Made by a program: the position numbers and the translations under genes. DNA of 20,000 nucleotides from an uncultured virus (IMG/VR IMGVR_UViG_3300013370_000002) (lineage: Duplodnaviria > Heunggongvirae > Uroviricota > Caudoviricetes): positions 45,702-65,701 of IMG/VR virus record IMGVR_UViG_3300013370_000002. One strand, written 5' to 3'. Under the pieces are notes generated by a model. That model ran no database searches. It was given only the letters and a program-made list of their open reading frames with translations, and was not told the DNA's origin. Each line of letters starts with the position of its first letter. Position 1 is the stretch's first letter. This document shows, piece after piece, positions 2,837 through 19,888 of the stretch.

Positions 2837-5800
2837 ATGGCATATATCACACTCAATAAAGCGCATACTCACCATAAAACAACTATCAATGGTCAGCCTA
2901 CTAGCCAGTATAGCCGCTACGAAACAGGTTTAATCACTGGCAACAAGCGAGACTTGCCAGCCATTCTAGCGGATAGTACGGGCAGTGACGGCTATAGTTT
3001 TGATAGTGCAGTCGGTAGTGCTGATGATAGCTGGCACGTATTAAACGCCTTTGATAAACAGGGCTTGTATGTCGATAGTATTGCGGTTGGCGGCGCTATG
3101 GATGCCGATCACGCTACCGTGGTAGCGCGCACCCAGCTTGACAGCCTAGGCGCAGCTAACCTAAAAGTGATTGGTGAGGGATTGGTTCAGTTTGACAGTA
3201 TCAATCAATCGAACGCTGGCACGTTTTCAGTTGACGCCATCAACAAGCTTATGGACAACCCTTCGCAAGATAAAAACTACCTACCGATCATTACCGCCTC
3301 AGAGCTTGCTTATGAAGCTGATCGCGTTACCTTTGACAGTGTGGAGTGGGGCGAAGGAGCAGAGCTATTAAGCCATGACGGGCGTGATAGCACACTCATG
3401 CTAGACATGACTCGTGCCGATACTCGCAGCGACTTAGTAAACGAATTTGAGCTTGCAGACGTACTCGACTTGCTGGGCGCTGAACCTGAGCAGAGCTTTG
3501 ATGCCTTGATGGACACCAAAAACCGTTTAGGGCTATTGAAAGATCGCTTATATAACGCGATGAGCCGTGCCGGTAACGATACGGTATCAGTTACTAATGT
3601 CACTGAAACCAAGCCATTTAAGCGCCAGGGCGTGACTAATATTGCCTTTGTGTTTGATCTATCAGACGGTCAAAAATTGTCTATCTGGTTCCACAATCCA
3701 GACAGTACGCCATCCAAGTTAATGCCAAGCGATATCATGATTAGCTGGAAATGGATGTTAAACAAGCGTGATGTGACCGCCGCATTATCACCAAAACAAG
3801 GTGATAACGTCCAGTTGCCTGCGCTGGCAAGTCGAATCATGCGCGTAGCTGCCAAGAACTCTATGCCATTTAAGCGTACACAAGCCAAGCGCTTAAAGCT
3901 AGATAATGAGCTAGCAGAAGCAAAAATGACGATTGAAAATAAGACTGCCACTATCGAGCAGTTGGATCAAGATATTGCCAGCCTAAATAGCCAGATTGAT
4001 GCGGCTATGAAAGCGCCTAAAGTTGAGCCAGCGGTTAATAATTCTGATATTGAAGCAAATAACCCGTCATTGAATGGCACGGACAGCGCATTATCCGAAA
4101 AGTTGAATCTAAGCGCTAAAGACTTAAATGCTTTTAATGCAGGCTTATCCGAACATGACACTGTTAATATCGATGGTTATGCCGATAAGATCAAAAGAAA
4201 GCAAAAGCAGTTAGACGATCAAGGCGTGTCCTATGTGGGTCAAAGTGAATTTCAAAATCTTATCAACAATGGCGATGAGCCGGGACTATCTGAGCAGAAG
4301 CAAAAAGAGACTATAGACAACTTAATAAAAGACGCTGAGAACCTTCGTGATAAAAAAATAGGTCCATCAAAAATTGTTGGTGCAGGCTACAAAGATGCTC
4401 GATCAGTCGCTTTTAAGTGGTTGGCAAAAACAATAAAAATGGACCAAGAAGCTTTTAACGGCGATGTTGCAGGTTTTAATAACATTATCAACATGAGCAA
4501 TTATATTATTTATTTAGGCCAACAGTTAAGTGGCAGCAACAATGAAGGTGCAGCGGCAGATAACGCGACTGACACCGAAGCAGATATAGCACTAGCCAGA
4601 CCAAGTCAAATGGAAGAGCTTAAAAACCTTAGAAACTTAGCGCCTAAGTCTGGCGAGGCTATAAAATCAGATGATCCGGACGCTATTGAGAAGCTAGAAG
4701 CTAAACTGGGTTACTTGCAAGCGTTTGCAGCCGTGATGCGTACTGCTAACAAGCATGTGCGTAAAGGTGATGACGCCGCGCTTAGCAAGATGGGTTTAAA
4801 TGATAAAGAAATCGCAACCCTAAAAGAGCCTGATTATGCGGGTCGAACCGGCTTTGCTGATTATCAGATGACCAACAACAACGGTGAAATGGGGCGTATC
4901 AAGAAGCGCTTGAAAGGTCTTTATCGTGAGCGCGAATTAGAGCAGGCTGAAAATATCGATAGCGATCCAGCTAGCCAGCCAAGCCAAAATATGACATCCG
5001 CTGAGATTGATGCTATTGAACTTGAGGCATTCAAAGCCTTTACGGTTAGTAATGATTTTTGGAATAAACCTACATCGGTTGTCCAAGCGTTAAGCGAGAG
5101 TGACTTCAATCGCTTATCAGAGTCATTAACAGACGTTAATTACCATAAAGAAAATGCTTTTTTTAAGGCAAAACGCACCGGCGATCAATCTTTGATTAAT
5201 AAAACCATGTTTGATTTGCAAAATAGCGCTGAAGATGCCGCCGTATTACCAGATGGTTACGATGTCGATACCGCAAGCAATGATGCGATTATTAACGACA
5301 CTAGAATACAGTCGCTAATCACTGACTTAGGTTTAACGCTTACATCTAGTGAGAATAACGAGTACGAGTACGGTACAAAAACCGATAATAGCGCTTTTTC
5401 GTTTAAGCTGAAGCACGGTGAGCTATCAACCGTTTATTTTGTTCAAAACGGCGATGGCAGCAATCTAAATAACGCAATGACTGAGGTTAGCGATATAGAC
5501 GGGTTTATCACTCAAGCAAAAGATATGCACGCTAAATACATGGCTTTACTAGGTGAGGATAATACGCCTGATCCTGACAACACGCCAACCAACCCCAACA
5601 ACAAAAAGATAGTTAAAGGCAAGTCAAACAAAGCTAAAACACCCAAAGGCACCAAAATTGAAAGCGTCTTTGCTTTAGTTGATGCTAAATTCCTGATTGC
5701 CTCGCATACCGCAAACGGTAGTAAAAACCCTAAATACCCGCAAGAGCTACAGCCGCGTGATCGTGCGCGTGAATCTTCTATTGCATGGGTACAAAAAACC

Positions 5801-7531
5801 TCAAGAGAGCTTGATCCTGAGAGCTTAGGTCGTACTGGCCGTGTTGATACCGGCGCGCCTATCGTTGGTGATGATCTAGTGGTAGAAAGCGGCAACGGTC
5901 GCACTATTGCGATCAAGATGGCTTACGCCAATGGCGATGCTAGCGAGTACAGAGAATGGCTTGCTGAGAACGCTGATATGTTCGGTATGACCGCTAAGCA
6001 AGTAGAGAGCTATAAGCAGCCTATTCTTGTGCGTATGCGTACCACGCAAGTGAACCGCAGCGAGTTTGCAGTAGAAGCGAACCAAGACGACAAACTAAGC
6101 TTTACCGCCTCAGAACGCGCCAAATCAGATGCTAAGCGGGTTAATGCTGGCATGTTAGAGCTATTCGATCCTAGCGAGTCAGGCGACATCTTAGCCGCCA
6201 GTAACCGCCCATTCGTAAAATCGTTTCTAGCCAGCCTAGGCGCGACAGAAGCAGCGCAATATACCGACAGTAACGGCAATCCAACTCAAGCGCTAGTCGC
6301 TCGCATTAAAGGCGCATTGTTCAGTAAAGCCTATGACGATGACCGCTTGCTTGAGATGATGGCAGATCAAACAAAGCCTGAGCTACAAAACACCCTAAAC
6401 GCCCTAACAATGGCCGCGCCTAAGTTTGTAGCAGCACAAGCGGTCAACCGTAGTGACGCGCAGGACTTGGCTGAAAAAGTGGTTGATAGTGTCGAGCAGT
6501 CGCTAAGCGACGAGGTTAAAAACGCCATTGTTGATGCCACCAACATGATTATGAACGCCAAGCTTAGCAATCAAGATATTAAAGAATACGTGCTGCAACA
6601 AGGGTTGTTTGAGCAAGTGGACGATGCCACCGCTGAACTGGCCGTATTTCTTGCCGCTAATGCTCGTAGCGCCAAGAAAATGACTGAGTATTTTAATGCA
6701 ATGGCAAGCTATATCGAGCAAGACAGCGTGAGCCGTCAAAACCTTGATATGTTTGGCGAGCCTGAGCCGTTATCGCTCGCTGATGTGATTGCTCATGCCA
6801 ATAGCAAAGCCAATGACAATACCGACACCATAGGATCACTTGATATGTTTAATGAGACGGTAGTAGAAGAAGCGGTAGTGACTGACAACCAAGCTACCAC
6901 AAGCGACAAGAATTACTCATCCAGCAACCCTTATGCTGCTTACGCTAATGATGACGAAGATGCTATGAATAACGCCGACCAATGGGAGGCCAGAGAGCCG
7001 CTAACAGAAAACCGTTTGGATCAGTTTAACAAAATGGCAGAATCGCTTGGTTTTAGCACCTTTATCGAATCAAGACATGCAGGCTTAGGGGTATTCCAAG
7101 CAGCCAAAGAAGTATCTAATCGCAAGGTCGAGATTGACGGTAAATTCAAAAACAATGACAGCCAGTCATCAAAAGAAGCGCCTAGAGACTTCACTATCGA
7201 AAAATCTGAAAACGGAAACATTGTTGATTACCAGTACACCAACGACTTATCAGATTATATTAAAAAGGCGAACGACTGGCTAAATCAAGCCAGCCCACTA
7301 GACGACTTCAGCACAGCTAACCTAGCCGCCAAAGTTGACGGTATAGTCGCTGAGATCAACTCAGACGACTTTGACCCAGAGATTTTTGATGTTGATGCGC
7401 TAAGTGCTATTGCAGATGAGGCTGAGGGCAATAGCGAGCTTACCGCAAAACTTGAGGCTGCAAGTGAGGTGTATCAAAACAAGTTGATCGCAGTTGCTAT
7501 GCAAGCTATGTCTGATATGGCGGGCAAGTAA
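2837..7531 (+). CDS. darA: Large polyvalent virion protein: DarA N-terminal domain + coiled coil + DUF3560-like segment + DdrB-like ParB-superfamily domain
   Basis: ~3530-3900 'FDLSDGQKLSIWFHNP...LNKRDVTAALSP..G...RIMRVAAKNSMPFKRTQAKR' resembles P1 DarA_N. ~4655-4920 'IKSDDPDAIEKLEAKL...PDYAGRTGFADYQMTNNNGEMGRIKKRL' resembles DUF3560-type regions. ~5630-6130 'LIASH...NPKYPQELQPRDR...GAPIVGDDLVVESGNGRT' is the ddrB-ParB signature. Confidence 0.8.
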   Translation: MAYITLNKAHTHHKTTINGQPTSQYSRYETGLITGNKRDLPAILADSTGSDGYSFDSAVGSADDSWHVLNAFDKQGLYVDSIAVGGAMDADHATVVARTQLDSLGAANLKVIGEGLVQFDSINQSNAGTFSVDAINKLMDNPSQDKNYLPIITASELAYEADRVTFDSVEWGEGAELLSHDGRDSTLMLDMTRADTRSDLVNEFELADVLDLLGAEPEQSFDALMDTKNRLGLLKDRLYNAMSRAGNDTVSVTNVTETKPFKRQGVTNIAFVFDLSDGQKLSIWFHNPDSTPSKLMPSDIMISWKWMLNKRDVTAALSPKQGDNVQLPALASRIMRVAAKNSMPFKRTQAKRLKLDNELAEAKMTIENKTATIEQLDQDIASLNSQIDAAMKAPKVEPAVNNSDIEANNPSLNGTDSALSEKLNLSAKDLNAFNAGLSEHDTVNIDGYADKIKRKQKQLDDQGVSYVGQSEFQNLINNGDEPGLSEQKQKETIDNLIKDAENLRDKKIGPSKIVGAGYKDARSVAFKWLAKTIKMDQEAFNGDVAGFNNIINMSNYIIYLGQQLSGSNNEGAAADNATDTEADIALARPSQMEELKNLRNLAPKSGEAIKSDDPDAIEKLEAKLGYLQAFAAVMRTANKHVRKGDDAALSKMGLNDKEIATLKEPDYAGRTGFADYQMTNNNGEMGRIKKRLKGLYRERELEQAENIDSDPASQPSQNMTSAEIDAIELEAFKAFTVSNDFWNKPTSVVQALSESDFNRLSESLTDVNYHKENAFFKAKRTGDQSLINKTMFDLQNSAEDAAVLPDGYDVDTASNDAIINDTRIQSLITDLGLTLTSSENNEYEYGTKTDNSAFSFKLKHGELSTVYFVQNGDGSNLNNAMTEVSDIDGFITQAKDMHAKYMALLGEDNTPDPDNTPTNPNNKKIVKGKSNKAKTPKGTKIESVFALVDAKFLIASHTANGSKNPKYPQELQPRDRARESSIAWVQKTSRELDPESLGRTGRVDTGAPIVGDDLVVESGNGRTIAIKMAYANGDASEYREWLAENADMFGMTAKQVESYKQPILVRMRTTQVNRSEFAVEANQDDKLSFTASERAKSDAKRVNAGMLELFDPSESGDILAASNRPFVKSFLASLGATEAAQYTDSNGNPTQALVARIKGALFSKAYDDDRLLEMMADQTKPELQNTLNALTMAAPKFVAAQAVNRSDAQDLAEKVVDSVEQSLSDEVKNAIVDATNMIMNAKLSNQDIKEYVLQQGLFEQVDDATAELAVFLAANARSAKKMTEYFNAMASYIEQDSVSRQNLDMFGEPEPLSLADVIAHANSKANDNTDTIGSLDMFNETVVEEAVVTDNQATTSDKNYSSSNPYAAYANDDEDAMNNADQWEAREPLTENRLDQFNKMAESLGFSTFIESRHAGLGVFQAAKEVSNRKVEIDGKFKNNDSQSSKEAPRDFTIEKSENGNIVDYQYTNDLSDYIKKANDWLNQASPLDDFSTANLAAKVDGIVAEINSDDFDPEIFDVDALSAIADEAEGNSELTAKLEAASEVYQNKLIAVAMQAMSDMAGK

Positions 7532-8376
7532 TGCCAAACGCGCCAGCCACTAATAAAAACAAGACTACCAATGGCAATACCATTGGTAGCACTTGGGGCG
7601 AGAAGGGATTAAACAAAAACCTTCTTGTCAAAATACGGCCAGTAATCGAGGGCAATATTGAAGGCGGGCAAGGGGCGCAGACTTATGACGCTGATGCTAG
7701 TCAGCCCACGGTTGAGTCCATCTTTGAGGATGCTGAATTTACCATTGAATCGCAGTACAGCACGCCTTTTGAGTCGAGCAACCCTGAAGGTCGTCTTCCT
7801 AACTTAATGGGTATGATCCAGTCAGGGCAAGCCGCTGCTGCTGGTTACAGTATATTTGCTGCTGCTGGCGGCGGCGTAGTCGCTGATGTGGCTGACGCGG
7901 CGGCTAACTTCATTGGCGCCAAAGACGTTATTGAGTCGGGACAAGCCGAACTAGAAGGACTGATGGGTAAGTCCAACTTCACCAAGCTCAATAGCCGCCA
8001 AATTTTCACCTCATCAAACTCAATACGCATTACTGGCAGCCTTGTCTTTCAGGCATGGAGCGACGCCGCAACCGAGGTTGAGGCAGCGGTAAGCCAGTTG
8101 CAGCGCTGGGCGTCCGCTAAGAGCTTGTCAAAAACATCATTGATTGTCGGTGCGCTTGATGAAGGGTTGTCGGCTATGTTCCCCTCAGAAATACCGCCAA
8201 TGGTGCAACTTCAATACGGTGGTAAAACCTATAAGCCGATGGTGATTGAGAGTGTATCAGCACCCATCACCGCCCCTATGACCAAAGACGGCAATCGTAT
8301 CGCTGTCAAAGTGCAAGTCACTTTCTTGTCCCTCACCGCATGGGATCAACAAAATATCATAGACATGAGCCGCTAA
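7531..8376 (+). CDS. Baseplate / tail-tube initiator protein (P1 gp24-like)
   Basis: 281 aa, translationally coupled by a TAATG overlap with the darA-like stop. Motifs 'SQYSTPFE', 'TKLNSRQIF', 'EVEAAVSQLQRWA' and 'PPMVQLQYGGKTYKPMVIESVSAP' resemble tube-initiator proteins of contractile tails. Confidence 0.55.
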   Translation: MPNAPATNKNKTTNGNTIGSTWGEKGLNKNLLVKIRPVIEGNIEGGQGAQTYDADASQPTVESIFEDAEFTIESQYSTPFESSNPEGRLPNLMGMIQSGQAAAAGYSIFAAAGGGVVADVADAAANFIGAKDVIESGQAELEGLMGKSNFTKLNSRQIFTSSNSIRITGSLVFQAWSDAATEVEAAVSQLQRWASAKSLSKTSLIVGALDEGLSAMFPSEIPPMVQLQYGGKTYKPMVIESVSAPITAPMTKDGNRIAVKVQVTFLSLTAWDQQNIIDMSR

Positions 8377-10169: not shown

Positions 10170-10907
10170 ATGGCAATTATTGAAATGCAAAAAGAGCTGG
10201 GCGTACTTGCTGATGGTTGGTGGGGCGGTGACTCGCAACGAGCCTACCTAGCACAAGGCAAACAGCTTGATTTTAACTGGGCTTATCTGAGACGCAAGCT
10301 AGCAGGCTCTTTTAGTCAATCTCAAGTAGATGGCTTTAACCGGATTATGGCTGCGTGCAACCGCGCCAAGCTATCGCCGCAGCACGCCGCCTATATTCTA
10401 GCGACTGTATGGCATGAGAGCGCCACAACCATGACTCCTATTAATGAGCATGGCAAGGGTCGCAAAAAGCGTTATGGTCAATGGTTTAAAAACAGCAAAG
10501 GGGTTGTTTATGGCATTCGTAATGGCAATCTTAGCCGTCCCGCCTACCTAAAGTCCGATTATCCTCACCTATTTTTTGGGCGCGGGGATTGCCAGCTTAC
10601 GTGGCTCGATAACTATATCAAGTTGGGGTTAATACTAGGCGTAGACCTTGCTAACAATCCTGATCTTGCGCTTGACCCCGATATTTCAGCCGATATTTTA
10701 GTGATTGGATCAATGCGAGGGCTGTTTACGGGTAAGAGTATTCCGCATTATGTTACGTTTGGCACTTTTAATGAGTTTGTGCTGGCACGTTATGTCATCA
10801 ATGGACGTGATAAGCGCGATCTTATTGCTGGGTATGCTAAAACCATTATGACCGCTATGCAACTAAAAGACGATGCTATTTGTGCTGAGTCTTTGCTGGT
10901 CGCTTAA
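10170..10907 (+). CDS. Endolysin, glycoside hydrolase family 19 (chitinase-like) with a short N-terminal peptidoglycan-binding-like motif
   Basis: GH19 motifs 'AYILATVWHES', 'FFGRGDCQLTWLDNY', 'DLANNPDLALDP' and 'ARYVING'. N-terminal 'MQKELGVLADGWWGGDS' resembles PG_binding DGxxG. GAGGTG SD. Confidence 0.9.
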   Translation: MAIIEMQKELGVLADGWWGGDSQRAYLAQGKQLDFNWAYLRRKLAGSFSQSQVDGFNRIMAACNRAKLSPQHAAYILATVWHESATTMTPINEHGKGRKKRYGQWFKNSKGVVYGIRNGNLSRPAYLKSDYPHLFFGRGDCQLTWLDNYIKLGLILGVDLANNPDLALDPDISADILVIGSMRGLFTGKSIPHYVTFGTFNEFVLARYVINGRDKRDLIAGYAKTIMTAMQLKDDAICAESLLVA

Positions 10908-11043: not shown

Positions 11044-14000
11044 ATGAAAGAGAAACTTGCTAGATTAAAACGACTACAAACCGCGCTTGCCAGCCTAAAA
11101 GCGGCCAATGATATTAAAAGCCGTATAGCCGCCGCTAAAGAGCTGACCGCTGTGCTAAAAGAGCTTGGCGCGTTTGCTAAAGCTAAGCCGCTAGATAGCA
11201 CAGCGCCTACCAGTAAAGACGCTACTACCAAAAAGATAGTTAATCGAACCACTATCGCTATTCCAGACAAGCCAGCCGCCCGTCAAAAAGCCAATGACAC
11301 TGCTATCGCTTTACTGGATGAGATACAAGGTAAAGGCTTAACCCGTGACGATCTAACTGATGAGCAAATAGAGGTTTTAGCTAAATATACCGGTAGTGGT
11401 GGCGGATTAACCGCTAAAGATGGTCGCCGCGGGTCAGCTTATGAATATTACACGCCTGAAGCAGTCGCGCAGTCTGTTTGGGATTTAGCAAGTGAGATGG
11501 GTTTTAGTGGCGGCAAGGTGCTTGATCCGAGTGCTGGCACGGGCATTTTCGCAGCAACCAGCCCAGAAAGCGCAGTCGTAGATAGTATTGAGCTTGATGA
11601 GACATCAGGCGGTATTGCTCAGATACTAAACGATGGTGAGCGCAGTAAAACGATTATCTCTCCTTTTGAGGCGCAAGCCGCGCTTATCGCTGATGACAGC
11701 CTTGATATGGTAGTGACCAATGTACCCTTTGGTGACAATAAGACACGCGGGGCTAATGCAACGCTTGATAAAGCCTATCAAAAAGAGTCGCTTGAGAATT
11801 ACTTTATCTTACGATCACTTGAAAAGGTGAAGCATGGCGGCCTCGCTATATTTGTGACACCAACGTCCGTAGTATCTGGCAAAAAAGCGGATAAGAAAAA
11901 GTTGCGCAAGCTCACTAGCTTAAAAGCTGACTTTTTGGGCGCGTATCGCTTGCCTACCAGTGTGTTTGAGCAGACGGGCGCGGACGTGGTAACAGACGTT
12001 ATCGTTTATCGTAAACATAGCCGCGATGCTATAGAGCAAATTAACGACTTATACCAAGCGGGTGATATTGACGCCCTCGTTAACAGCAACGTGCTATGGG
12101 ATGGCTATTTAAGCGGCAATTACTTTAAAAAGGCTGAGCATAAGCGCTTTATTTTAGGCGATGTGGTTAGTGAAAAAGATCGCTGGGGCAAAATGGCTGA
12201 AAAAGTCGTTAGCACTAAAAAGACACCTGAAATTGCCAAAATGATGAAAAAGTTTGGTGACAGCCGTATTGATTGGAATATGCTAGGCGCGGCTGGCGCT
12301 GAGATTATCGACTATAAAAACGGTGATGTAGTATTTCAAGACGGCAAGCAGTTAGAGTATCAAGACGGACGCTGGCAGGCGATAGAAAAAGAAGTGACTA
12401 GCACCGAGCTTGAAATACAACAGCAGCTTGCCAGCATGGGTAGCGCTATCGACATGGTGATGGCTCGCGTGACCTATGAGCAGATAAGCGCCACGTTTGA
12501 GTATAGCCAAAAAACTGGTCAAGCAGGATTGATCCCTAGCGATGCTTTGTCCATGTTAGATCGCGCCTCAAAGAGCGTGACTTCTGATCGCGCGGCTGCA
12601 TGGAACTGCGTATTGTGTGCGCAAGCTATCCGGGAGGCTATTGAGCTACATGAATACGGCTATGACTTTAAGAATGGCGAGCCTGAAATCACAGATTTTA
12701 TGAAATACGCGTTTTTGGATGGCAAAAACACTAAGTTATCTGGTGACGCTAAGCAAGATCATAAATTCGTAGCACTGTATTATGCCAATGGCAAGTATAA
12801 CGATGCTTGGCTTGGTAATATCAATAGCGAGGTTGTCGATAATGGCGCCGCTAAGAGCTATCAAAGCGTTATTGCGCGTATGCAGTACGAAAACAAAAGT
12901 CTTTACGTCACCCCTGAGCAGTTAAAACAGATTGATCCCGCCGCTGATCCAATCAGTAACGATGACTGGTTTACTAATCATGATGGCAGTCAGATTATCG
13001 CCGCTAATGACTTCTTAGTTGGTAGTTTGTCAGACCGCTTAAAAGATATCGATAATCAGATTGAACTTACTAATGATGAGCAGATTAAAGCCAAACTAAT
13101 TAAGCAAAAATCCATTGCTCGTGACAGCGTGGCGCGTATCGATGTTAAGCGCCTTGAGCTTGATCTTCGCACCCCGCTTATTAGTGCTGAAGATAAGGTA
13201 AGGTTTTTAAAGCAAACGGTCCATAAAGACGCTTTTGTCGCTTATAACGCACAAGGTCGCGGCATTGCAGATATCGATATTAAAGGCAGTAGCACCAAAG
13301 ACAGCCTTGAGAAAAAAGACAAGGATAAGCTATATAACCGTATCGGTGACTGGCTTGGCAAAGGAACTGTCACGCTAGGCAGCGTTAAGCTTGAGACTAT
13401 GAGTCAACGTGACGCCCTAAACTGGATGACGGAGCAGATCAATACCGCAAACATCAAGTTTAATTCATGGGTTAAGGCCAATAAAAACATCATGTCAGGT
13501 CTTGAGGCTATGATGACCAATGAGGACAATTTATACTTTACTCAAAACGCAGATGAGACGCCGATTGACATTGCTGGCATGAATCCAGCGCTTAGTTTGC
13601 ATGGCTATCAAAATGCCGAAGTGCGCAAACAAGGTCGCTTCTTTGGTGGTATTAACGGCTTCAGTGTTGGACTTGGTAAAACATTTACCTCACTTGCCAG
13701 CGTGCAGCATGTGCATAATATTGGCGTTAAAAAGAAAACGATTTTTGTGGTCCCTAATAGCGTGCTGTCCAACTGGCGTAAAGAGGCTACCTTCGCCTAT
13801 CAGAACACCGATGATTGTATTTTTATAGGCTTACGCGAGGACGGCGAAAAATTCCGTGTCATGTCAAACAAATATGACGAGGACTTGCTGGCTGCTATCG
13901 ATGGCAAGTACCGAAAAATATTCATGACGCTTGAGGCATTCAAGCGCATTCGCTTGAAGGACAACACGCTAGGCGATTATGCGGACTACATCAAGCAAAA

Positions 14001-17000
14001 CGATACCGCTTTTGCTGAAAAAGAGCTGCAAAAAGATGACGAAAAGGTAAACGGTTTAACCGCTGAGCTTATCGAGCGTTTGACAATGAACAGTAATGCG
14101 CCATTTTTGGAGGACATGCGCGTAGATAGCGTGGTGATTGATGAGGCTCATGCCTTTAAAAACTCTATTACAGCGCCTAACACCGATGACCGTATTAAAT
14201 ATCTATCACAGCCTGGTCAATCAGCGCGTGGTGAGGATGCACAAGCCAAGCTTTGGTATGTACGTGGCAGCACGCCTAATAATGATGGTGTGCAGCTACT
14301 CACAGCGACGCCTATTACCAATAGTCCGCTTGAGATTTACTCTATGTTATCGCTGGCAAGTGGCCGTAATACGATTAATAAAATGTGTGGCGGTATAAAC
14401 GGTGCTGATGACTTCATTCAGATCATGTGCCAAATTCAAGAGGAGGTTATGCCAACCATTGATGGCGGCGAACGCTCGCAAAACGTCTTTACTGGTATTC
14501 GTAACGCTAATATATTGCGTACCGTCATCGGATCAAACGCGGTCATTAAAGACGCGCAAGATGTCGGTATGTCAGTGGTTATACCGGACCGTGAAGAGGT
14601 CGCTACTGAGGTTAATTTAGGTAAAGGGGTAATGGATCAACTTCGTATGTTCCAAGATGCTTATACCGTCGCTAAACAGCTTGAGAAAGATCAGCTGGAT
14701 AATGAGCTTGCAGATATCAATCATCCGCAAAGCCCGTTTAACCCCAATAGCCCGTTTAGCATTATTCAGAAAAAATACGGTGAGGAAGTGGAGCTTATGG
14801 CTCATCCGTTTAACTTGATCCGCAAAATGGATGTGATGATTGCAGATAGCGAGTTTAGCGAAATGGCAACCTTCTACGACTTCGAGAAGTCACAAGAAAA
14901 GCTTGCGCAATCAGTCATTGATAAGTTCAATAAAAAAGCGTACTCAGACAGCCGTAAACGCTTAAGCCCTTACACTGACAAGGAAAATGCTGAAGCGGTC
15001 TACACTAAAGACGGTGATACAAAGGTTTTCAAAGAGTATAAAATCACAGTTGAGGCTAAGATTGTGCTGCATGATGGGCGCAAACGTATTGTTGTTGACA
15101 CCTTGAACGGTAAGACGCAATCGAGATTTGAAGATATTGCAGACAAAGATAAACTTAATCTCGATGTGACTACCTCCGCCAAAATAGCCGCTATGCTTGA
15201 AAACTTTAAGACTGAGCAGGCAGAGCCGCGCGGTGCTAACTCAGATGGTACTGCTAGCAATATCGTTAAGCAGATTATCTTTTGCGATCATCTATTTTTG
15301 CATAACAAGATTAAAAAATTAATTGCTAAGCGGGCAGGCGTGCCAGCCAGCAAAATAGCTATCATTACCGGGCAGATCAACAATGAGCCGGATGAGATGA
15401 TCGACATTCAAGATGGGTTTAATGCTGAGAGTGATGATAATCAATACCAGGTTATTATTGCCAACAAAAAAGCTGAGGTTGGTATTAACTTGCAGCGTGG
15501 TACGCAAGCAATCCACCACTTAACAACCGGTTGGACCCCTGATAGCTTAGAGCAGCGTAACGGACGTGGTGCCCGCCAAGGTAACAAGACGCAAAAGGTT
15601 GCTATTTATCATTACGATGCTGATGGCACGTTTGATGAGTTTAAGCGCACGATGATCGATAAAAAAGATGAATGGATCAGCAGCGTCTTAAAAGACGATG
15701 GTAAAAATACCATTGAGGTCACGGGTAGCATCTCACGTACTGAGCAAGACGCGCTTATCGCTACAATGGGTAACAAGGAGGCCATGCGCGAGTATCAAAC
15801 CACTAAGGACGCCAAAGAGAAAGAGGTCAGATATAACGCCGCCGTTAAGCGCCAAAGTATCAATATGGACGTAGTGCGTGAGCAGGCTAGCATGATGGCT
15901 GATCTTACTATCGATAAATTCTATGAGCAGGCTGTTATCAATGTAGTCAGTCTTATTCGTGACAATAGAACACTACTTACCAAAAATCAGAAATCTACCG
16001 CTAAAGCTGATACTCGCAAAAAGAATGAGCTGCTTTATGAGAACTCGAAACAGATCGCGCTTGATCAGTTAAGCGATATCTTGAACTCAGTAGGCGTGCA
16101 GCGCTACGATAAGGCCGAGGATTGGGATAGAACGCATAAGTATGTCCCGGTTGGCAGTATCGTTAGCCCTGATACTTCTGCTAACAATATCTATATCAGC
16201 ATAATGAATGATACTACTGAGTACCCACCAAGCAAGACAGATGAGTGGGCCAAGAAGTTTTCTAATATGCAGATTTTAGGCAGCTCTTATAATCATAGTA
16301 ACGATAAACTTATTATCAACGAGGGCAGCATCTATCAAGCGGCTTATGATGAGGTTAAAGAAACCGCTGAAGGACTTATTAATCAGTCCGTTATTGCGGC
16401 CAACTATATCGCTGAAGAGACGGGGATTGATGGTATTAGCTTGCCCGCTAACGCTGGCGAGCTAATCGCTAGAAAAGAGGCTGTCATTGTTAATGGCGTT
16501 TATATCCAAGTCGGATCAATCGTCATTAAACCGCAAGGGGCCGATAAACCTGATGATATTTATCTCGCTCGTATGGATGATGGTAAACTTACACTGAGTA
16601 AGGTTGGCAAAGCTTCTTTTGGTGGTACTTACTCTGTATCAAATAACACGCCATCCATTACCATGTTTATCGAGGCTGACATGGTGATTAATCCTAATAG
16701 CAGCCGCTACTTGAGTGCGATCAAGCAAATAGCCGCCTTTGAAGATAGTTTGCATCTACAAGGCGCTTTAAAGCCGCTGTCATTTAAGTATAGCGACGTG
16801 TTGCCAGAAGTCGCAGAATACCGCGATGATAGCATCAGACCTATCTGGAATATGAGTGCAGACTTTGGCGGCAGTCATGCCAACATTGAAAACAGTCCTA
16901 TAGCTATCATGTTGCCCTTGTTTGTTTTGAACGCTGGTACGCCATTTGCTAAAGCCATGCTGACACAGTATGCAAAGTACGGCTTTGAGATTAATATTGA

Positions 17001-17967
17001 TAACGGAACCTTTATCACTAAAGACGATGTTACCGTTAAGCGCGCTCACTACTACCCAGGGCAAACCGATTACTTTAACGCTGTTACTGATATTATTAAA
17101 AATAGCGGGGTTAAGATTACAGCAAGCGATAAAGAAATTATTGATAACGATCGTATCCCTTATGCCATACTAAAAGAAAATAGCGCTGCTACTTTTGACG
17201 CTGTAGAGGCTGCCAAAGCATCGATAACGGCTGAGACTGATCCGGCAAGCTTTAATAAGATGGCTATAGATGTTTTCGATAACTATTTGTATGATGATAA
17301 GTATATCGACAAAGGACTTAGCGACGATGTTAAGCTAGCATTAATCAATGCCGCTTATAAAGATGCCTCACCTGGCTATATCAGATCATTTGATGTGATA
17401 GAGTATTTTTCTGAAGCGTTAAAAAAAGCTGTTATCAGTGAAGCGGTAAGCAAGGCGGCAAAAAATGGTGATAGCGTCGAGCAGTTTTCAGAAAATCTAG
17501 GTTTGGATGGATCAAAACTGCAAGCGATTTTAGATGGCGGGGCGACTGAGCATAATATTAATGAGTTTGGACGCTTTGATAAACTAAAAAGCACGGTCGA
17601 CAAAGAAAAGGCAAAGGCGTATTTTGAGGCTTTTGAAGGTGGTAGTATTACCGCGCTCAAGACCAATATGAAAGTCGACTCCACATTGAGATCGTTTATA
17701 TTGAGCAATAGCAAGGCGGCGGATGGTGAAGGCGATAGCGGTATTGCACCGGGTACAATAGTCTATATTGGCGGTGAAACCATGGCTAATAAGAAAACCA
17801 TCAAGGCTTATGCCAAGTCGCACGGCGTAGTGATTAGAGGCACAGTGCAAAAAGCATACTGGGACGGCCCCAATAGCGTATGGGTAACAAGTTTTATAGC
17901 ATGGCAGAAAATGATAGAAGATAGACCGGCCCTAGCAGACGAACTCACCATACAAACTAAAATATAA
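11044..17967 (+). CDS. darB: DarB-like anti-restriction protein: N6-adenine methyltransferase + SF2 (SNF2-type) helicase/ATPase + variable C-terminal domains
   Basis: 'YEYYTP', SAM motif 'VLDPSAGTGIF', motif IV 'VVTNVPFG', Walker A 'SVGLGKT', 'VVIDEAH', 'LLTATPITNSP', 'EVGINLQ' and motif VI 'EQRNGRGARQG'. Size (2307 aa) is similar to P1 DarB, and it is followed by a ulx homologue as in P1. Confidence 0.9.
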   Translation: MKEKLARLKRLQTALASLKAANDIKSRIAAAKELTAVLKELGAFAKAKPLDSTAPTSKDATTKKIVNRTTIAIPDKPAARQKANDTAIALLDEIQGKGLTRDDLTDEQIEVLAKYTGSGGGLTAKDGRRGSAYEYYTPEAVAQSVWDLASEMGFSGGKVLDPSAGTGIFAATSPESAVVDSIELDETSGGIAQILNDGERSKTIISPFEAQAALIADDSLDMVVTNVPFGDNKTRGANATLDKAYQKESLENYFILRSLEKVKHGGLAIFVTPTSVVSGKKADKKKLRKLTSLKADFLGAYRLPTSVFEQTGADVVTDVIVYRKHSRDAIEQINDLYQAGDIDALVNSNVLWDGYLSGNYFKKAEHKRFILGDVVSEKDRWGKMAEKVVSTKKTPEIAKMMKKFGDSRIDWNMLGAAGAEIIDYKNGDVVFQDGKQLEYQDGRWQAIEKEVTSTELEIQQQLASMGSAIDMVMARVTYEQISATFEYSQKTGQAGLIPSDALSMLDRASKSVTSDRAAAWNCVLCAQAIREAIELHEYGYDFKNGEPEITDFMKYAFLDGKNTKLSGDAKQDHKFVALYYANGKYNDAWLGNINSEVVDNGAAKSYQSVIARMQYENKSLYVTPEQLKQIDPAADPISNDDWFTNHDGSQIIAANDFLVGSLSDRLKDIDNQIELTNDEQIKAKLIKQKSIARDSVARIDVKRLELDLRTPLISAEDKVRFLKQTVHKDAFVAYNAQGRGIADIDIKGSSTKDSLEKKDKDKLYNRIGDWLGKGTVTLGSVKLETMSQRDALNWMTEQINTANIKFNSWVKANKNIMSGLEAMMTNEDNLYFTQNADETPIDIAGMNPALSLHGYQNAEVRKQGRFFGGINGFSVGLGKTFTSLASVQHVHNIGVKKKTIFVVPNSVLSNWRKEATFAYQNTDDCIFIGLREDGEKFRVMSNKYDEDLLAAIDGKYRKIFMTLEAFKRIRLKDNTLGDYADYIKQNDTAFAEKELQKDDEKVNGLTAELIERLTMNSNAPFLEDMRVDSVVIDEAHAFKNSITAPNTDDRIKYLSQPGQSARGEDAQAKLWYVRGSTPNNDGVQLLTATPITNSPLEIYSMLSLASGRNTINKMCGGINGADDFIQIMCQIQEEVMPTIDGGERSQNVFTGIRNANILRTVIGSNAVIKDAQDVGMSVVIPDREEVATEVNLGKGVMDQLRMFQDAYTVAKQLEKDQLDNELADINHPQSPFNPNSPFSIIQKKYGEEVELMAHPFNLIRKMDVMIADSEFSEMATFYDFEKSQEKLAQSVIDKFNKKAYSDSRKRLSPYTDKENAEAVYTKDGDTKVFKEYKITVEAKIVLHDGRKRIVVDTLNGKTQSRFEDIADKDKLNLDVTTSAKIAAMLENFKTEQAEPRGANSDGTASNIVKQIIFCDHLFLHNKIKKLIAKRAGVPASKIAIITGQINNEPDEMIDIQDGFNAESDDNQYQVIIANKKAEVGINLQRGTQAIHHLTTGWTPDSLEQRNGRGARQGNKTQKVAIYHYDADGTFDEFKRTMIDKKDEWISSVLKDDGKNTIEVTGSISRTEQDALIATMGNKEAMREYQTTKDAKEKEVRYNAAVKRQSINMDVVREQASMMADLTIDKFYEQAVINVVSLIRDNRTLLTKNQKSTAKADTRKKNELLYENSKQIALDQLSDILNSVGVQRYDKAEDWDRTHKYVPVGSIVSPDTSANNIYISIMNDTTEYPPSKTDEWAKKFSNMQILGSSYNHSNDKLIINEGSIYQAAYDEVKETAEGLINQSVIAANYIAEETGIDGISLPANAGELIARKEAVIVNGVYIQVGSIVIKPQGADKPDDIYLARMDDGKLTLSKVGKASFGGTYSVSNNTPSITMFIEADMVINPNSSRYLSAIKQIAAFEDSLHLQGALKPLSFKYSDVLPEVAEYRDDSIRPIWNMSADFGGSHANIENSPIAIMLPLFVLNAGTPFAKAMLTQYAKYGFEINIDNGTFITKDDVTVKRAHYYPGQTDYFNAVTDIIKNSGVKITASDKEIIDNDRIPYAILKENSAATFDAVEAAKASITAETDPASFNKMAIDVFDNYLYDDKYIDKGLSDDVKLALINAAYKDASPGYIRSFDVIEYFSEALKKAVISEAVSKAAKNGDSVEQFSENLGLDGSKLQAILDGGATEHNINEFGRFDKLKSTVDKEKAKAYFEAFEGGSITALKTNMKVDSTLRSFILSNSKAADGEGDSGIAPGTIVYIGGETMANKKTIKAYAKSHGVVIRGTVQKAYWDGPNSVWVTSFIAWQKMIEDRPALADELTIQTKI

Positions 17968-17976
17968 GGGATATTT

Positions 17977-18402
17977 ATGAATTATTTATTTGATAAAGAT
18001 GATCTAGCAGATAGAACGCAAGCCACTATCAAGTCGCTTGCTAAAAATAAGCCAGACGTAAATTTTACTGAGTTTGCTGCTAGCGTGATATTTGATCGCC
18101 TAAAGAGCAATATACAGCGATACCGCGTTTATGGTCCTTATTGGTGGGCACTAAAAGACGTGCTACGCCGTATGGATTATAACGTAGGCGATGAGACGGA
18201 TAGCGACATGGCTGGCAAGTATTGCGGAAGTAGTGACGCTGAAACACTGGTAGCAGCGGACGCCTTTTATCTTGATATGAGTAAAACCAAGCCAGTCAAC
18301 AACAATACCTGGACGCTTGATGATCGCAAGCGTGACTACGTGCTATATGATAGCGATATGGAAGAGCGCACCAGCGTAGCGGATAGCACACTCGCTTACT
18401 AA
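17977..18402 (+). CDS. ulx: Ulx-like protein (promotes DarB incorporation into virions in P1)
   Basis: 141 aa directly after darB. 'RLKSNIQRYRVYGPYWWALKDVLRRMDY' matches the P1 Ulx pattern as I recall it (RL.KN...YR.YGPYW...K..L....Y); 'TLVAA' is also shared. Confidence 0.75.
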   Translation: MNYLFDKDDLADRTQATIKSLAKNKPDVNFTEFAASVIFDRLKSNIQRYRVYGPYWWALKDVLRRMDYNVGDETDSDMAGKYCGSSDAETLVAADAFYLDMSKTKPVNNNTWTLDDRKRDYVLYDSDMEERTSVADSTLAY

Positions 18403-18464: not shown

Positions 18465-19721
18465 CTAATGTATTTTATACAGCTTTTCGATAACCTCATC
18501 TTGTGTAAAACCAGCCTCGTTAAATATAAACCCTTCAATATCATTCATGGCTGCACGCAGTCTCTTTTGGCTGACTTGAATATATTGTAACGTCACATCA
18601 TCGGAGGCTTTTGAGGTTCTATGGTTCATTAAGCGCTTAATAACCGATATGTTCAAATTCAAAATATCGCCAATGGTTGAGAAGGTACGACGCAGATCAT
18701 GTGGCGTAATATGAATACCTGCAGCGTCACCTATGTTTGTGTACTGTTTGGATATATCGGTCAGGTTGCCGTCGCATTCTTTTAAGCGAGAAGGGAATAA
18801 CCACGGCTCGTCTTGTCGGTAATGGTGGCGATGGGTAAGCATAGCGCACATAACTTTACCTAGCGGCACATGCAAGTTATCGCCGTTCTTAGTTTCAAAA
18901 ATGGTCATAGTGCCATGCTTTAAATCAATACTATCCCATCTTAATGTATAGCCTTCGCTGGCACGTATGCCAGTGCACAAAAATAGCAGCATGATATCGC
19001 GTGCATTATTACTATGCGGCTGCATGGTATGGAAGTCCTCACTCTTAAAATCTAGCAGCACGCGAGTATAGTTACCCATCGTGTCTTCACTCAGATAAGT
19101 GGTGCGAGGCTTAACTGTGTTCCATAATTTTTTGGCCGTTAGTATCTCGATAGGGCTGGGCTTGATGATTGGTGATTCGGACTTGTCCAAAAAACTTAGG
19201 CGCGAGAAGTTCCAAACCGCATTAAGGGCTCGAAAAGTCGCGTTGGCTTGTGACGGGCTAAGCTTAGTAAGTTCTAAATGTTTTTCAGTGACATTGCTTT
19301 GCATGATCTCGTTCATTGACCTATCTTGCCATTCAGCTAACTTATCTAATATTTGCCGATTGTAGGTTTTGATAGTTGACTGCTTCAGTCCCGGCTTATG
19401 AGTAATATAATATTCATACGCTTCGCCAAGTGTCGGAACAACCACGTCTTTCATGTCATCATTAAACGGATCTCGCCCTTGCATCAAATCGGATATTGCA
19501 GACATGGCACGTTCGCGTGCGTCTTGCAAAGTTATGATTGAGCAGTCACCAATAACGCGGCGATGCAACTTGCCAGCAATGCGCTTATTGATAATATAGT
19601 TTTTACTCGCGCTCTTAGTGCAGACAGCAAAGCCATTGACGAGCTCGTCTTGATGAATAACCGCTTTTTCCGTGTACTCCAAGCCGTCAATAAACCGTTT
19701 GGTAAATTTAGTTTTTGCCAT
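18465..19721 (-). CDS. int: Tyrosine recombinase / prophage integrase with an N-terminal arm-binding domain (P4-like)
   Basis: Catalytic residues in TGIRASE (R), ETKNG (K), PHDLRRT (H-x-x-R), LMNH (H) and VTLQY (Y). The arm-binding-type N-terminus 'MAKTKFTKRFIDGL...DELVNGFAV...RRVIGD...ITLQDARERA' supports a start at 19721 (418 aa) rather than 19853. Confidence 0.93.
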   Translation of the reverse strand: MAKTKFTKRFIDGLEYTEKAVIHQDELVNGFAVCTKSASKNYIINKRIAGKLHRRVIGDCSIITLQDARERAMSAISDLMQGRDPFNDDMKDVVVPTLGEAYEYYITHKPGLKQSTIKTYNRQILDKLAEWQDRSMNEIMQSNVTEKHLELTKLSPSQANATFRALNAVWNFSRLSFLDKSESPIIKPSPIEILTAKKLWNTVKPRTTYLSEDTMGNYTRVLLDFKSEDFHTMQPHSNNARDIMLLFLCTGIRASEGYTLRWDSIDLKHGTMTIFETKNGDNLHVPLGKVMCAMLTHRHHYRQDEPWLFPSRLKECDGNLTDISKQYTNIGDAAGIHITPHDLRRTFSTIGDILNLNISVIKRLMNHRTSKASDDVTLQYIQVSQKRLRAAMNDIEGFIFNEAGFTQDEVIEKLYKIH

Positions 19722-19756
19722 GATCGTTGCTATCCGTAGTGTGAATCTGTCTAGGT

Positions 19757-19785
19757 ATAGTAGAGGATAACGGGTAAAATGAGAA
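19757..19785 (-). promoter_or_regulatory. Putative sigma70 promoter of the integrase
   Basis: Minus strand reads TTCTCA, 17 nt, TACTAT, ending 35 nt upstream of the int ATG. Confidence 0.35.
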
Positions 19786-19806
19786 GTATACCAAAAGTAT
19801 ACTTTT
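19784..19806. repeat. Tandem AAGTATAC repeats with an 11-bp period, the second inside the palindrome AAAAGTATACTTTT; probable integrase arm-type sites
   Basis: AAGTATAC at 19784-19791 and 19795-19802; perfect 14-bp palindrome at 19793-19806; located between the tRNA 3' end and int. Confidence 0.55.
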
Positions 19807-19851
19807 AGCCGTTTTGATATCACCCATAGAGCCAGTGTAAAAACAGCAGGC

Positions 19852-19888
19852 AAAGAAAAACCCCGTAAACAGTGGGTTTACGGGGTTT
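19852..19888 (-). terminator. Rho-independent terminator of the tRNA transcript
   Basis: Minus strand AAACCCCGTAAAC-CCACT-GTTTACGGGGTTT-TTCTTT: a perfect 13-bp stem starting 5 nt after the tRNA CCA. Confidence 0.9.

Follow-up and report, generated by a model that had tools for sequence, protein, structure and literature searches.

A segment related to the C-terminus of type I restriction HsdR subunits within a DarB-like phage protein

Results

A DarB-like gene with an extra segment near its 3' end

The window analyzed here is a 20,000-nucleotide stretch of DNA, the rightmost 20 kb of the uncultured virus record IMGVR_UViG_3300013370_000002 (positions 45,702 to 65,701), and our subject is a single gene within it whose 2307-residue product resembles DarB, an injected anti-restriction protein of phage P1. 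Near its C-terminus this protein carries a block of 84 residues that matches the tail of HsdR, the subunit that serves type I restriction-modification (R-M) enzymes as nuclease and motor. The whole record, a virus contig of 65.7 kb that CheckV rates complete, includes portal and integrase genes. Because the darB product is 84-90% identical overall to proteins annotated in Psychrobacter genomes, the virus is a temperate Psychrobacter phage. The gene and its parts, in window coordinates, are as follows.

11044..17967, plus strand: darB-like gene, 2307 residues, with an N6-adenine methylase and SNF2/SF2 helicase dyad and a long C-terminal region
11434..12045, plus strand: methylase domain, residues ~131-334; PF07669 (Eco57I) at 24.2 bits, just below the 25.3-bit cut-off; phrog_10089 stretch at residues 131-330
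13405..15582, plus strand: SNF2-type helicase core; SNF2-rel_dom/ResIII at residues 788-1042 and Helicase_C at residues 1411-1513
17431..17721, plus strand: segment inserted relative to block-less relatives, about residues 2130-2226, from an alignment of seven DarB relatives
17467..17715, plus strand: core of the HsdR-derived module, residues 2142-2224, with five predicted helices and a conserved NINEFGRFD...VDKEKAKAYFE motif
17707..17754, plus strand: acidic Ser/Gly-rich linker 3' of the module, NSKAADGEGDSGIAPG (residues 2222-2237), with a predicted local distance difference test (pLDDT) score below 50 at model residues 108-116
17755..17964, plus strand: small C-terminal domain, last ~70 residues (2238-2307), aligned in all seven relatives

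The assignment of the gene product to the DarB group rests on matches to phrog_11801 across residues 19-1621 (E = 0) and to phrog_10089, 'DarB-like antirestriction' (E 2.7e-72). P1 DarB is 30% identical to the window protein, over residues 80-1552 only (tblastn, E 3e-59), and the window protein has a methylase followed by a helicase in one polypeptide, homologous to the dyad of P1 DarB. The methylase contains the sequences VLDPSAGTGIF (residues 159-169) and TNVPFG (residues 225-230), which we take to be motifs I and IV, respectively; the helicase core scores above the Pfam cut-offs (PF00176, 41.7 bits; PF04851, 24.8 bits; PF00271, 26.5 bits) and contains the motifs GLGKT (residues 876-880) and DEAH (residues 1033-1036). 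The combination of methylase, helicase, HsdR-derived module and C-terminal domain in one 2307-residue phage protein is that of a polyvalent protein.

PHROGs hold no family for the block, for the 205-residue C-terminal end or for the 467 residues that precede it, and a megablast search of darB against 50,697 phage records returned no match. When the last 205 residues (2103-2307) were compared with the phage collection, two ordinary HsdR-like open reading frames (ORFs) were the sole matches. The last ~70 residues, which are common to block-bearing and block-less relatives alike and have no match in Pfam or PHROG, may be a packaging or partner-binding signal. The linker that precedes them has a longer and more repetitive counterpart (SESESESE) in the relative P0273.

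The block matches the extreme C-terminus of HsdR subunits

The translation of 17455-17706 (plus strand) is identical to the 84 residues singled out in an original prediction made from the sequence alone, and corresponds to residues 2138-2221; the flanks that the prediction had described as linker-like are likewise in place, with SKAAKNG ahead of the block and NSKAADGEGDSGIAPG behind it. The prediction held that this segment resembles the C-terminus of HsdR. Searched alone, by protein search, BLASTP and phmmer, the segment indeed returned HsdR C-termini as its matches. In a search of 5.8 billion proteins (241-2000 residues), 235 of 1435 scored candidates reached E <= 1e-3. All 120 matches listed carry PF12008 (EcoR124_C), most of them with the full HsdR domain set and a length of about 1035-1060 residues. 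The best match had an E-value of 6.7e-25 (64% identity), and the next (E 1.8e-24) is named 'HsdR family type I site-specific deoxyribonuclease [uncultured Psychrobacter sp.]'. A BLASTP alignment of the block with the Psychrobacter HsdR shows 52 of 83 residues identical (63%), 66 of 83 positive and no gaps, and places it at residues 951-1033 of a 1035-residue protein. With phmmer, run without an index against 1.84 billion cluster representatives, 376 proteins reached E <= 1e-3 and 85 of them E <= 1e-10. The HsdR sequence pattern that the prediction had given is reproduced by the consensus of 59 homologues (...LGxDExKL...TExNINEFGRFDxLKxTVDKxKAKxYFE...FKVNxKxDxLLRxFIL). The resemblance of the block to HsdR C-termini is far beyond chance.

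The protein that carries the block is nonetheless not an HsdR: it has neither HSDR_N nor T1R_D3, and continues for about 86 residues beyond the block. The HsdRs that the block matches fit PF12008 end to end, at residues 751-1027 of the Psychrobacter HsdR P0004, 754-1029 of the HsdR at locus L071 and 728-1031 of an E. coli plasmid HsdR. The top phmmer match, P0123, is a protein of 149 residues with three matched stretches; part of the module is duplicated inside it (RFDNLKNTVDKKQAKDFLEKREGN repeated). A mechanically called 112-residue ORF lies antisense to the block (window 17376-17714, minus strand) and is very unlikely to be a gene because of the strong homology on the plus strand.

Examination of full-length subunits indicates how these HsdRs relate to EcoR124I, the enzyme studied by experiment. 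The whole of HsdR P0004 matches the EcoR124I/II HsdR chains (E 1.6e-79), with the best-scoring stretch at residues 3-474 only, and the E. coli plasmid type IC HsdR aligns with P0004 by tblastn over residues 2-696 only. By this homology, the HsdRs matched by the block are members of the EcoR124I family in the broad sense, in a subfamily other than that of EcoR124I itself. Searches against solved structures gave no HsdR C-terminus: phmmer with the 205-residue C-terminal end of DarB found nothing at E <= 10, the last 213 residues of P0004 found chance matches only (E >= 0.038), and the 59-homologue profile found no HsdR chain at E <= 1.

An AlphaFold2 model of the block, built with the 59 homologues, has a pLDDT of 75 overall and of 85-91 in a five-helix core, which is preceded by a helix of DarB and followed by a disordered linker. 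In a model of the C-terminal end of the Psychrobacter HsdR (pLDDT 69), the helix pattern of the block and its confidence recur at the end of the chain. Foldseek searches of the Protein Data Bank with both models gave no match at E <= 1e-3. The highest Z that VIA-align returned among 48,161 chains was 4.8, and the missing fold match is no sign of a different or new fold.

The block is an insertion in one DarB lineage

A query with the C-terminal 658 residues of DarB yielded six relatives, four of which (P0273, P0274, P0275 and P0276) contain the block. It is cleanly missing from the other two, P0277 and P0278 (another Psychrobacter), in which a conserved DVIEYF helix is joined through a short linker to the conserved last ~70 residues; the insertion comprises about 97 residues. 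A scan of one genome per species recovered 60 DarB-like loci, including 41 with complete ORFs of at least 1900 residues. Only one of the 60 contains the block (L004, from Psychrobacter sp. FME13; 94% identity by tblastn), and the other 40 of the 41 complete ORFs have no HsdR-derived Pfam domain in their last 750 residues. Together with the restriction of the P1 DarB alignment to residues 80-1552, these distributions mark the block as a lineage-specific insertion and not as a universal part of the DarB core, the outcome that would have counted against the original prediction.

Comparison of the block-bearing proteins indicates that the module has been kept. Relative to the window protein, identity stands at 90-98% for the core, at 93, 94, 60 and 79% for the block, and at 91, 56, 40 and 38% for the last 70 residues. 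The five DarB block variants differ by up to 40% in the block, and all are intact and in frame, with the consensus positions of the family and its conserved core motif retained. The window block and that of L004 are separated by 12 synonymous and 6 nonsynonymous differences, from which the ratio of nonsynonymous to synonymous substitution rates (dN/dS) comes to 0.115 on small counts; dS is 0.27 in the block, as against 0.77 and 1.55 in its flanks. The block is under purifying selection, as far as such small counts can measure it. The net charge of the window block is -2, where the family median is +2 and the range -6 to +7 (111 blocks of 84 residues).

The closest relatives of the block are HsdRs of the host genus

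All five DarB blocks find their best match outside DarB in the same Psychrobacter-type HsdR, P0003 (64, 65, 64, 67 and 79% identity). In a maximum-likelihood tree of 45 block sequences, whose resolution is limited by its 84 columns, the five DarB blocks form one group (support 98/89) inside a clade (95/90) that they share with nine Psychrobacter-type HsdRs; they are nested in, or sister to, these HsdRs, and the order within the clade is not resolved. Among the sequences called Psychrobacter-type, P0004 is so designated by its name, L065-L070 come from a search of the genus, and P0003 and P0005-P0007 are grouped by similarity.

That genus search found the module in 7 of 154 Psychrobacter genomes, once in a DarB copy and six times in an HsdR-size ORF. 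The six HsdRs are 1035-1054 residues long and bear the module at their C-terminal end, with 48-63% identity to the block. The original prediction had asked whether the host genus possesses a cognate R-M locus; one is present, in the order hsdM-rhuM-hsdS-hsdR, and its HsdR C-terminus is the most similar to the block. A captured piece of the antagonized enzyme, as the prediction proposed, agrees with the tree, which points to an HsdR of the host lineage as the source. Since the module is present throughout this HsdR family but seldom in DarB, the transfer ran from HsdR to phage. The block has 69.5% nucleotide identity to the 3' end of a host hsdR, and its guanine-plus-cytosine content (42.1%) is unremarkable beside that of darB (44.2%) and host hsdR (41.9%), which argues that the transfer was not recent. 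Judged from sequence, the block was captured from a Psychrobacter HsdR, whose extreme C-terminal sub-domain it copies, and is held on flexible linkers near the C-terminal end of DarB.

The R-M loci with block-type HsdRs have a second distinguishing feature in their methylase subunit. HsdM of the Psychrobacter loci is 918-922 residues long. At L071 (G114:C8), HsdM is encoded at 14529-17294 (minus strand), and P0279 and its 119 listed relatives are mostly about 850-920 residues long rather than ~520; HsdM of this R-M subfamily bears a C-terminal extension of ~400 residues, which has no Pfam domain. A long HsdM, homologous to residues 501-918 of P0279, stands beside the block-type HsdR in 12 of 12 testable loci (two more lack upstream sequence), whereas an EcoR124-like locus of E. 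coli (L084) matches only the N-terminal part of P0279 and has no match to the extension. Between hsdM and hsdS at L071 lies a RhuM-family gene (13348-14346, minus strand; PF13310, E 9.5e-99), and locus L072 has a 360-residue ORF at the corresponding position.

The module recurs in other giant DarB-type proteins

Further proteins with the module were drawn from the 150 phmmer matches listed. Three of these are proteins of more than 2500 residues in which the module is internal and 41-49% identical to the window block.

P0149, 2527 residues: module at residues 684-771
P0216, 4398 residues: module at residues 2266-2346
P0272, 3087 residues: module at residues 1011-1099

All three also hold methylase and helicase segments homologous to those of the window DarB, with the module upstream of the methylase, where the window DarB has it downstream of the helicase. 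The other domains of the carriers are typical of polyvalent proteins (MuF_C, DarA_C, LPD3, YodL, Zeta-toxin, nucleotidyltransferase and MutS_I). In P0149, an EcoEI_R_C domain (residues 580-680; 29.5 bits against a cut-off of 24) stands directly ahead of the module. Residues 580-771 of this metagenomic protein comprise two HsdR C-terminal modules in tandem, between nucleotidyltransferase and YodL-like domains. The module is further joined to a Zeta-toxin domain in P0192 (1026 residues), and lies near the N-terminus of P0245 and P0263, which have no Pfam domain. In the tree, the other carriers fall outside the Psychrobacter clade, on long branches, a placement that fits independent captures.

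Apart from one DarB copy, scans of nucleotide collections returned HsdR-like ORFs that end in the module, or truncated copies. Eleven loci in viral contigs comprise one DarB prophage copy (FME13), eight HsdR-size ORFs and two truncated frames. At L078 and L080 (8335-9264) a 310-residue open frame ends in the module, where the similar L079 has an HsdR-size frame of 1048 residues; L078 and L080 are probably broken hsdR genes. In metagenomes, the best 80 of 483 confirmed loci were sorted into 17 of HsdR size, 4 at contig edges and 59 'other', and in these 80 the block lies at most 11 residues from the C-terminal end, except in the small frames L120 and L158. The 'other' loci are mostly stop-to-stop frames of 1190-1445 residues from one gut cluster, the remainder being shorter frames. 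Near-identical loci of human-gut metagenomes (L090-L156) have stop-to-stop frames of about 1230-1280 residues, which exceed the normal length of HsdR and have the module at their end, and P0104 (1231 residues), which is related to this cluster, also has an HsdS domain (PF01420). This suggests that the gut-cluster frames are either HsdS-HsdR fusions or long upstream open frames.

Genes around darB

The remainder of the window carries the following genes.

459-2087: portal gene; phrog_1497, E 4.2e-151
2837..7531, plus strand: 1564-residue polyvalent protein with DarA_N (PF18788, 108.5 bits) and ddrB-ParB (PF18763, 112 bits) domains; phrog_1926, 'released from the phage upon host infection'
7531..8376, plus strand: PmgG-like head morphogenesis gene, between the portal gene and darB; phrog_1114, E 3.9e-54
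10170-10907: endolysin-like gene
17977..18402, plus strand: Ulx-like gene, directly 3' of darB; phrog_1629, 'Ulx-like anti-restriction', E 2e-23
18465-19853, minus strand: integrase

The darB-like gene is accordingly surrounded by Ulx-like, PmgG-like and portal genes and by a gene with DarA_N and ddrB-ParB domains, a context as expected of a virion-loaded Dar module. In the protein encoded at 2837-7531, DarA_N (residues 220-342) and the ddrB-like ParB domain (residues 937-1068) are fused in one chain; DarA and DdrB are separate Dar proteins in P1. The same protein has weak, primase-like phrog matches at residues 604-706. By its domain content, we assign it as the DarA/DdrB part of a Dar-like module.

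Discussion

A possible docking role for the captured HsdR tail

Two premises of the original prediction are borne out by the literature. The C-terminal region of HsdR is implicated in binding the HsdS-HsdM core in excerpted text on EcoR124I (PMC2878639), and excerpts of PMC11109961 describe DarA and DarB of P1 as proteins that are loaded into the capsid, injected and able to inactivate type I systems by a mechanism that is still undefined. The protection that the P1 Dar proteins give acts only in cis, according to excerpts of PMC12707154, and the title of the Grinkevich 2018 crystal-structure paper ties the C-terminal domain of HsdR to 'complex assembly and DNA binding'.

The original prediction had put forward two hypothetical mechanisms, a decoy that would keep HsdR from docking and an adaptor that would tether the host methylase to incoming DNA. 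We propose that the injected DarB-like translocase uses its HsdR tail to take the place of HsdR on the M2S core (HsdM2-HsdS) of the host, and on the present sequence evidence regard this proposal as the best supported of the readings considered, at about even odds. The protein would be packaged in the virion and enter with the DNA as P1 DarB does, a mode of delivery that for the window DarB is predicted from homology and context. Its tail would then fill the HsdR docking site on the host core; such binding to M2S, and an effect on restriction, are what we infer for the block. Methylase cores on the recognition sites of the incoming genome would be unable to recruit the nuclease-motor subunit, no cleavage-competent complexes would be assembled there, and DarB would act, in effect, as a nuclease-free surrogate HsdR. 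The motor of DarB would meanwhile hold the protein on phage DNA and would thereby account for cis action by few copies, and the blocked core would either be left as a methylase only or be pushed off by the SNF2 motor. In EcoR124I, HsdR binding is weak and dynamic, and the methylase acts well on unmodified DNA; for these reasons competition could be effective and the phage DNA could be left for methylation.

A broader form of this idea, which we advance only tentatively and would rather doubt than assert, is that DarB-type injected enzymes, at least in some lineages, are nuclease-free surrogate HsdRs equipped with family-specific docking 'keys' copied from host HsdRs, and that they exclude the real HsdR while leaving or exploiting the host methylase on the phage genome. 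The candidate keys would be the EcoR124_C-type tail of the window DarB and the EcoEI_R_C and EcoR124_C-type tail that stand in tandem in P0149.

Several observations weigh against a docking role. By itself, the block scores 14.1 (E 0.035) to 14.4 bits against PF12008, where the cut-off is 23.1 bits, since no more than the last third of the 260-position model (positions 157/188-259) is covered; it is a fragment of the EcoR124_C domain and not the whole domain. Profiles of the block also fail to detect the C-terminal end of EcoR124I or of the E. coli plasmid HsdR, and since EcoR124I is so distant a relative, the 'complex assembly' role is transferred through family-level PF12008 homology only; the title of Grinkevich 2018, moreover, names DNA binding as a role of the domain as well. 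The presumed target HsdR occurs in only 6 of the 154 genomes of the genus. In G001, the sole lysogen examined, no HsdR bears this tail, a result that is uninformative about the target. Neither the best 80 of 483 metagenome loci nor the 11 viral-contig loci include a giant carrier beyond the FME13 prophage DarB, which indicates that capture is rare. Finally, the whole C-terminal 600 residues of DarB are mosaic and variable, and the presence of the module therefore need not mean strong selection.

This last point bears on the possibility that the block is a functionless passenger, brought in by illegitimate recombination between a prophage and the 3' end of a host hsdR and tolerated in a variable, linker-rich C-terminal end. 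The drop in identity between the core (90-98%) and the C-terminal end (38-91%), the lower dS of the block relative to its adjacent flanks, and the occurrence of prophage and hsdR in one genus would all suit such an origin. We nevertheless consider a passenger very unlikely: five variants with up to 40% difference in the block all keep it whole and in frame, the dN/dS value, on 18 differences only, is low and the core motif is kept, and the module has been joined independently to three other DarB-type proteins and to one other protein.

A role for the module that involves no contact with the host methylase core must also be weighed. It could act on nucleic acid, or as a general helper of the translocase or methylase of DarB on DNA, for instance within a DNA-binding groove such as has been proposed for the C-terminal domain of HsdR, as the DNA-binding half of the Grinkevich 2018 title would allow. 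HsdR and DarB are both SF2 translocases, such that a module serving one motor could serve the other, and the carriers P0149, P0216 and P0272 also have it linked to a DarB-type motor. Against this reading, the block is not markedly basic, 40 of the 41 complete DarB-like ORFs do without the module, and its closest relatives are HsdRs of the phage's host genus, which a generic DNA-binding helper would not need; we judge it unlikely. The tail might instead bind some other partner of HsdR, such as the ~400-residue extension of the long HsdM or a host factor that controls HsdR (restriction-alleviation machinery, for example), and thereby tether, mislocalize or trigger the turnover of restriction complexes without competing for the docking site. 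The pairing of long HsdM with block-type HsdR at every testable locus is compatible with this scenario, as is the role of ClpXP proteolysis of HsdR in restriction alleviation in EcoKI (PMC11109961, in excerpt). However, the co-occurrence may reflect only the common descent of one R-M subfamily, given that the N-terminal parts of these HsdMs are 65-93% identical, and we hold another partner to be decidedly improbable.

Comparison with known anti-restriction systems

The window DarB shares with that of P1 the dyad of N6-adenine methylase and SNF2 helicase, an adjoining Ulx-like gene, and DarA_N and ddrB domains encoded near head genes. It differs in that its last ~750 residues have nothing detectable in common with P1 DarB, and the HsdR-derived module belongs to a small Psychrobacter-phage lineage only. 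Packaging and type I protection in cis are known for P1 only (PMC11109961 and PMC12707154, in excerpt), and for the window protein they are predicted from homology and context. With respect to EcoR124_C, the block shares homology with the last ~85 residues of HsdRs that match PF12008 end to end over their C-terminal ~280 residues, but it corresponds to the last third of that domain only, resides in a protein without HSDR_N and T1R_D3, and is not recognizably similar in sequence to the tail of EcoR124I.

The class to which the protein belongs, that of polyvalent anti-defense proteins, is known; the new part is the putative subunit-mimicry module. Polyvalent proteins as defined by Iyer, Burroughs, Anand, de Souza and Aravind in 2017 (PMC5512222) are likewise giant and multidomain, contain the DarB methylase-helicase dyad and are delivered with DNA. 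The terms HsdR, EcoR124, EcoEI and 'R subunit' do not occur in the main text of that paper, and against Pfam the block matches no LPD or other family beyond the weak PF12008 hit, so that an HsdR-derived module appears to lie outside the described polyvalent repertoire. The original prediction was aware of no description of such a fusion, and no earlier account of DarB or polyvalent proteins with a domain derived from HsdR was found in the non-subscription literature that was searched. The Loenen 2013 review (PMC3874165) has nothing on the C-terminal end of HsdR, and the 'decoy immunity' preprint (10.1101/2023.04.06.535777) deals with decoys of the HsdS/HsdM type in hosts (Ronin) and not with phage pieces of HsdR.

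A different route to the same class of target is represented by Ocr and ArdA. These proteins mimic DNA and are strongly acidic. They too act on type I R-M enzymes by occupying a binding site of the enzyme (excerpts of PMC11109961), but the block, with a net charge of -2 and the character of a copied domain of an enzyme subunit, would mimic a protein partner and not DNA. As a DNA mimic of the Ocr/ArdA kind the block was rejected, since it lacks the highly acidic surface, has no match in sequence and shows none in fold that convinces; its structural alignment with Ocr (1s7z; Z 3.5, root-mean-square deviation 5.6 over 75 residues) is at noise level.

Implications

How the Dar proteins of P1-type phages act on type I restriction has been an open question since the 1980s, and a copied piece of HsdR from the region implicated in docking turns the vague idea of 'shielding' into a specific and testable hypothesis about an interface. 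That the module recurs in further giant DarB-type proteins, one of which has it next to a second kind of HsdR C-terminal domain, points to a general strategy, in which mobile elements collect the subunit-docking domains of the defense enzymes that they face. If our proposal is true, the module would represent a route to anti-restriction through mimicry of a protein subunit, distinct from DNA mimicry, and would give a first mechanistic handle on Dar. It would likewise mean that the last ~85 residues of this HsdR family are a functional unit, and would offer a way to predict the R-M families against which a phage is armed.

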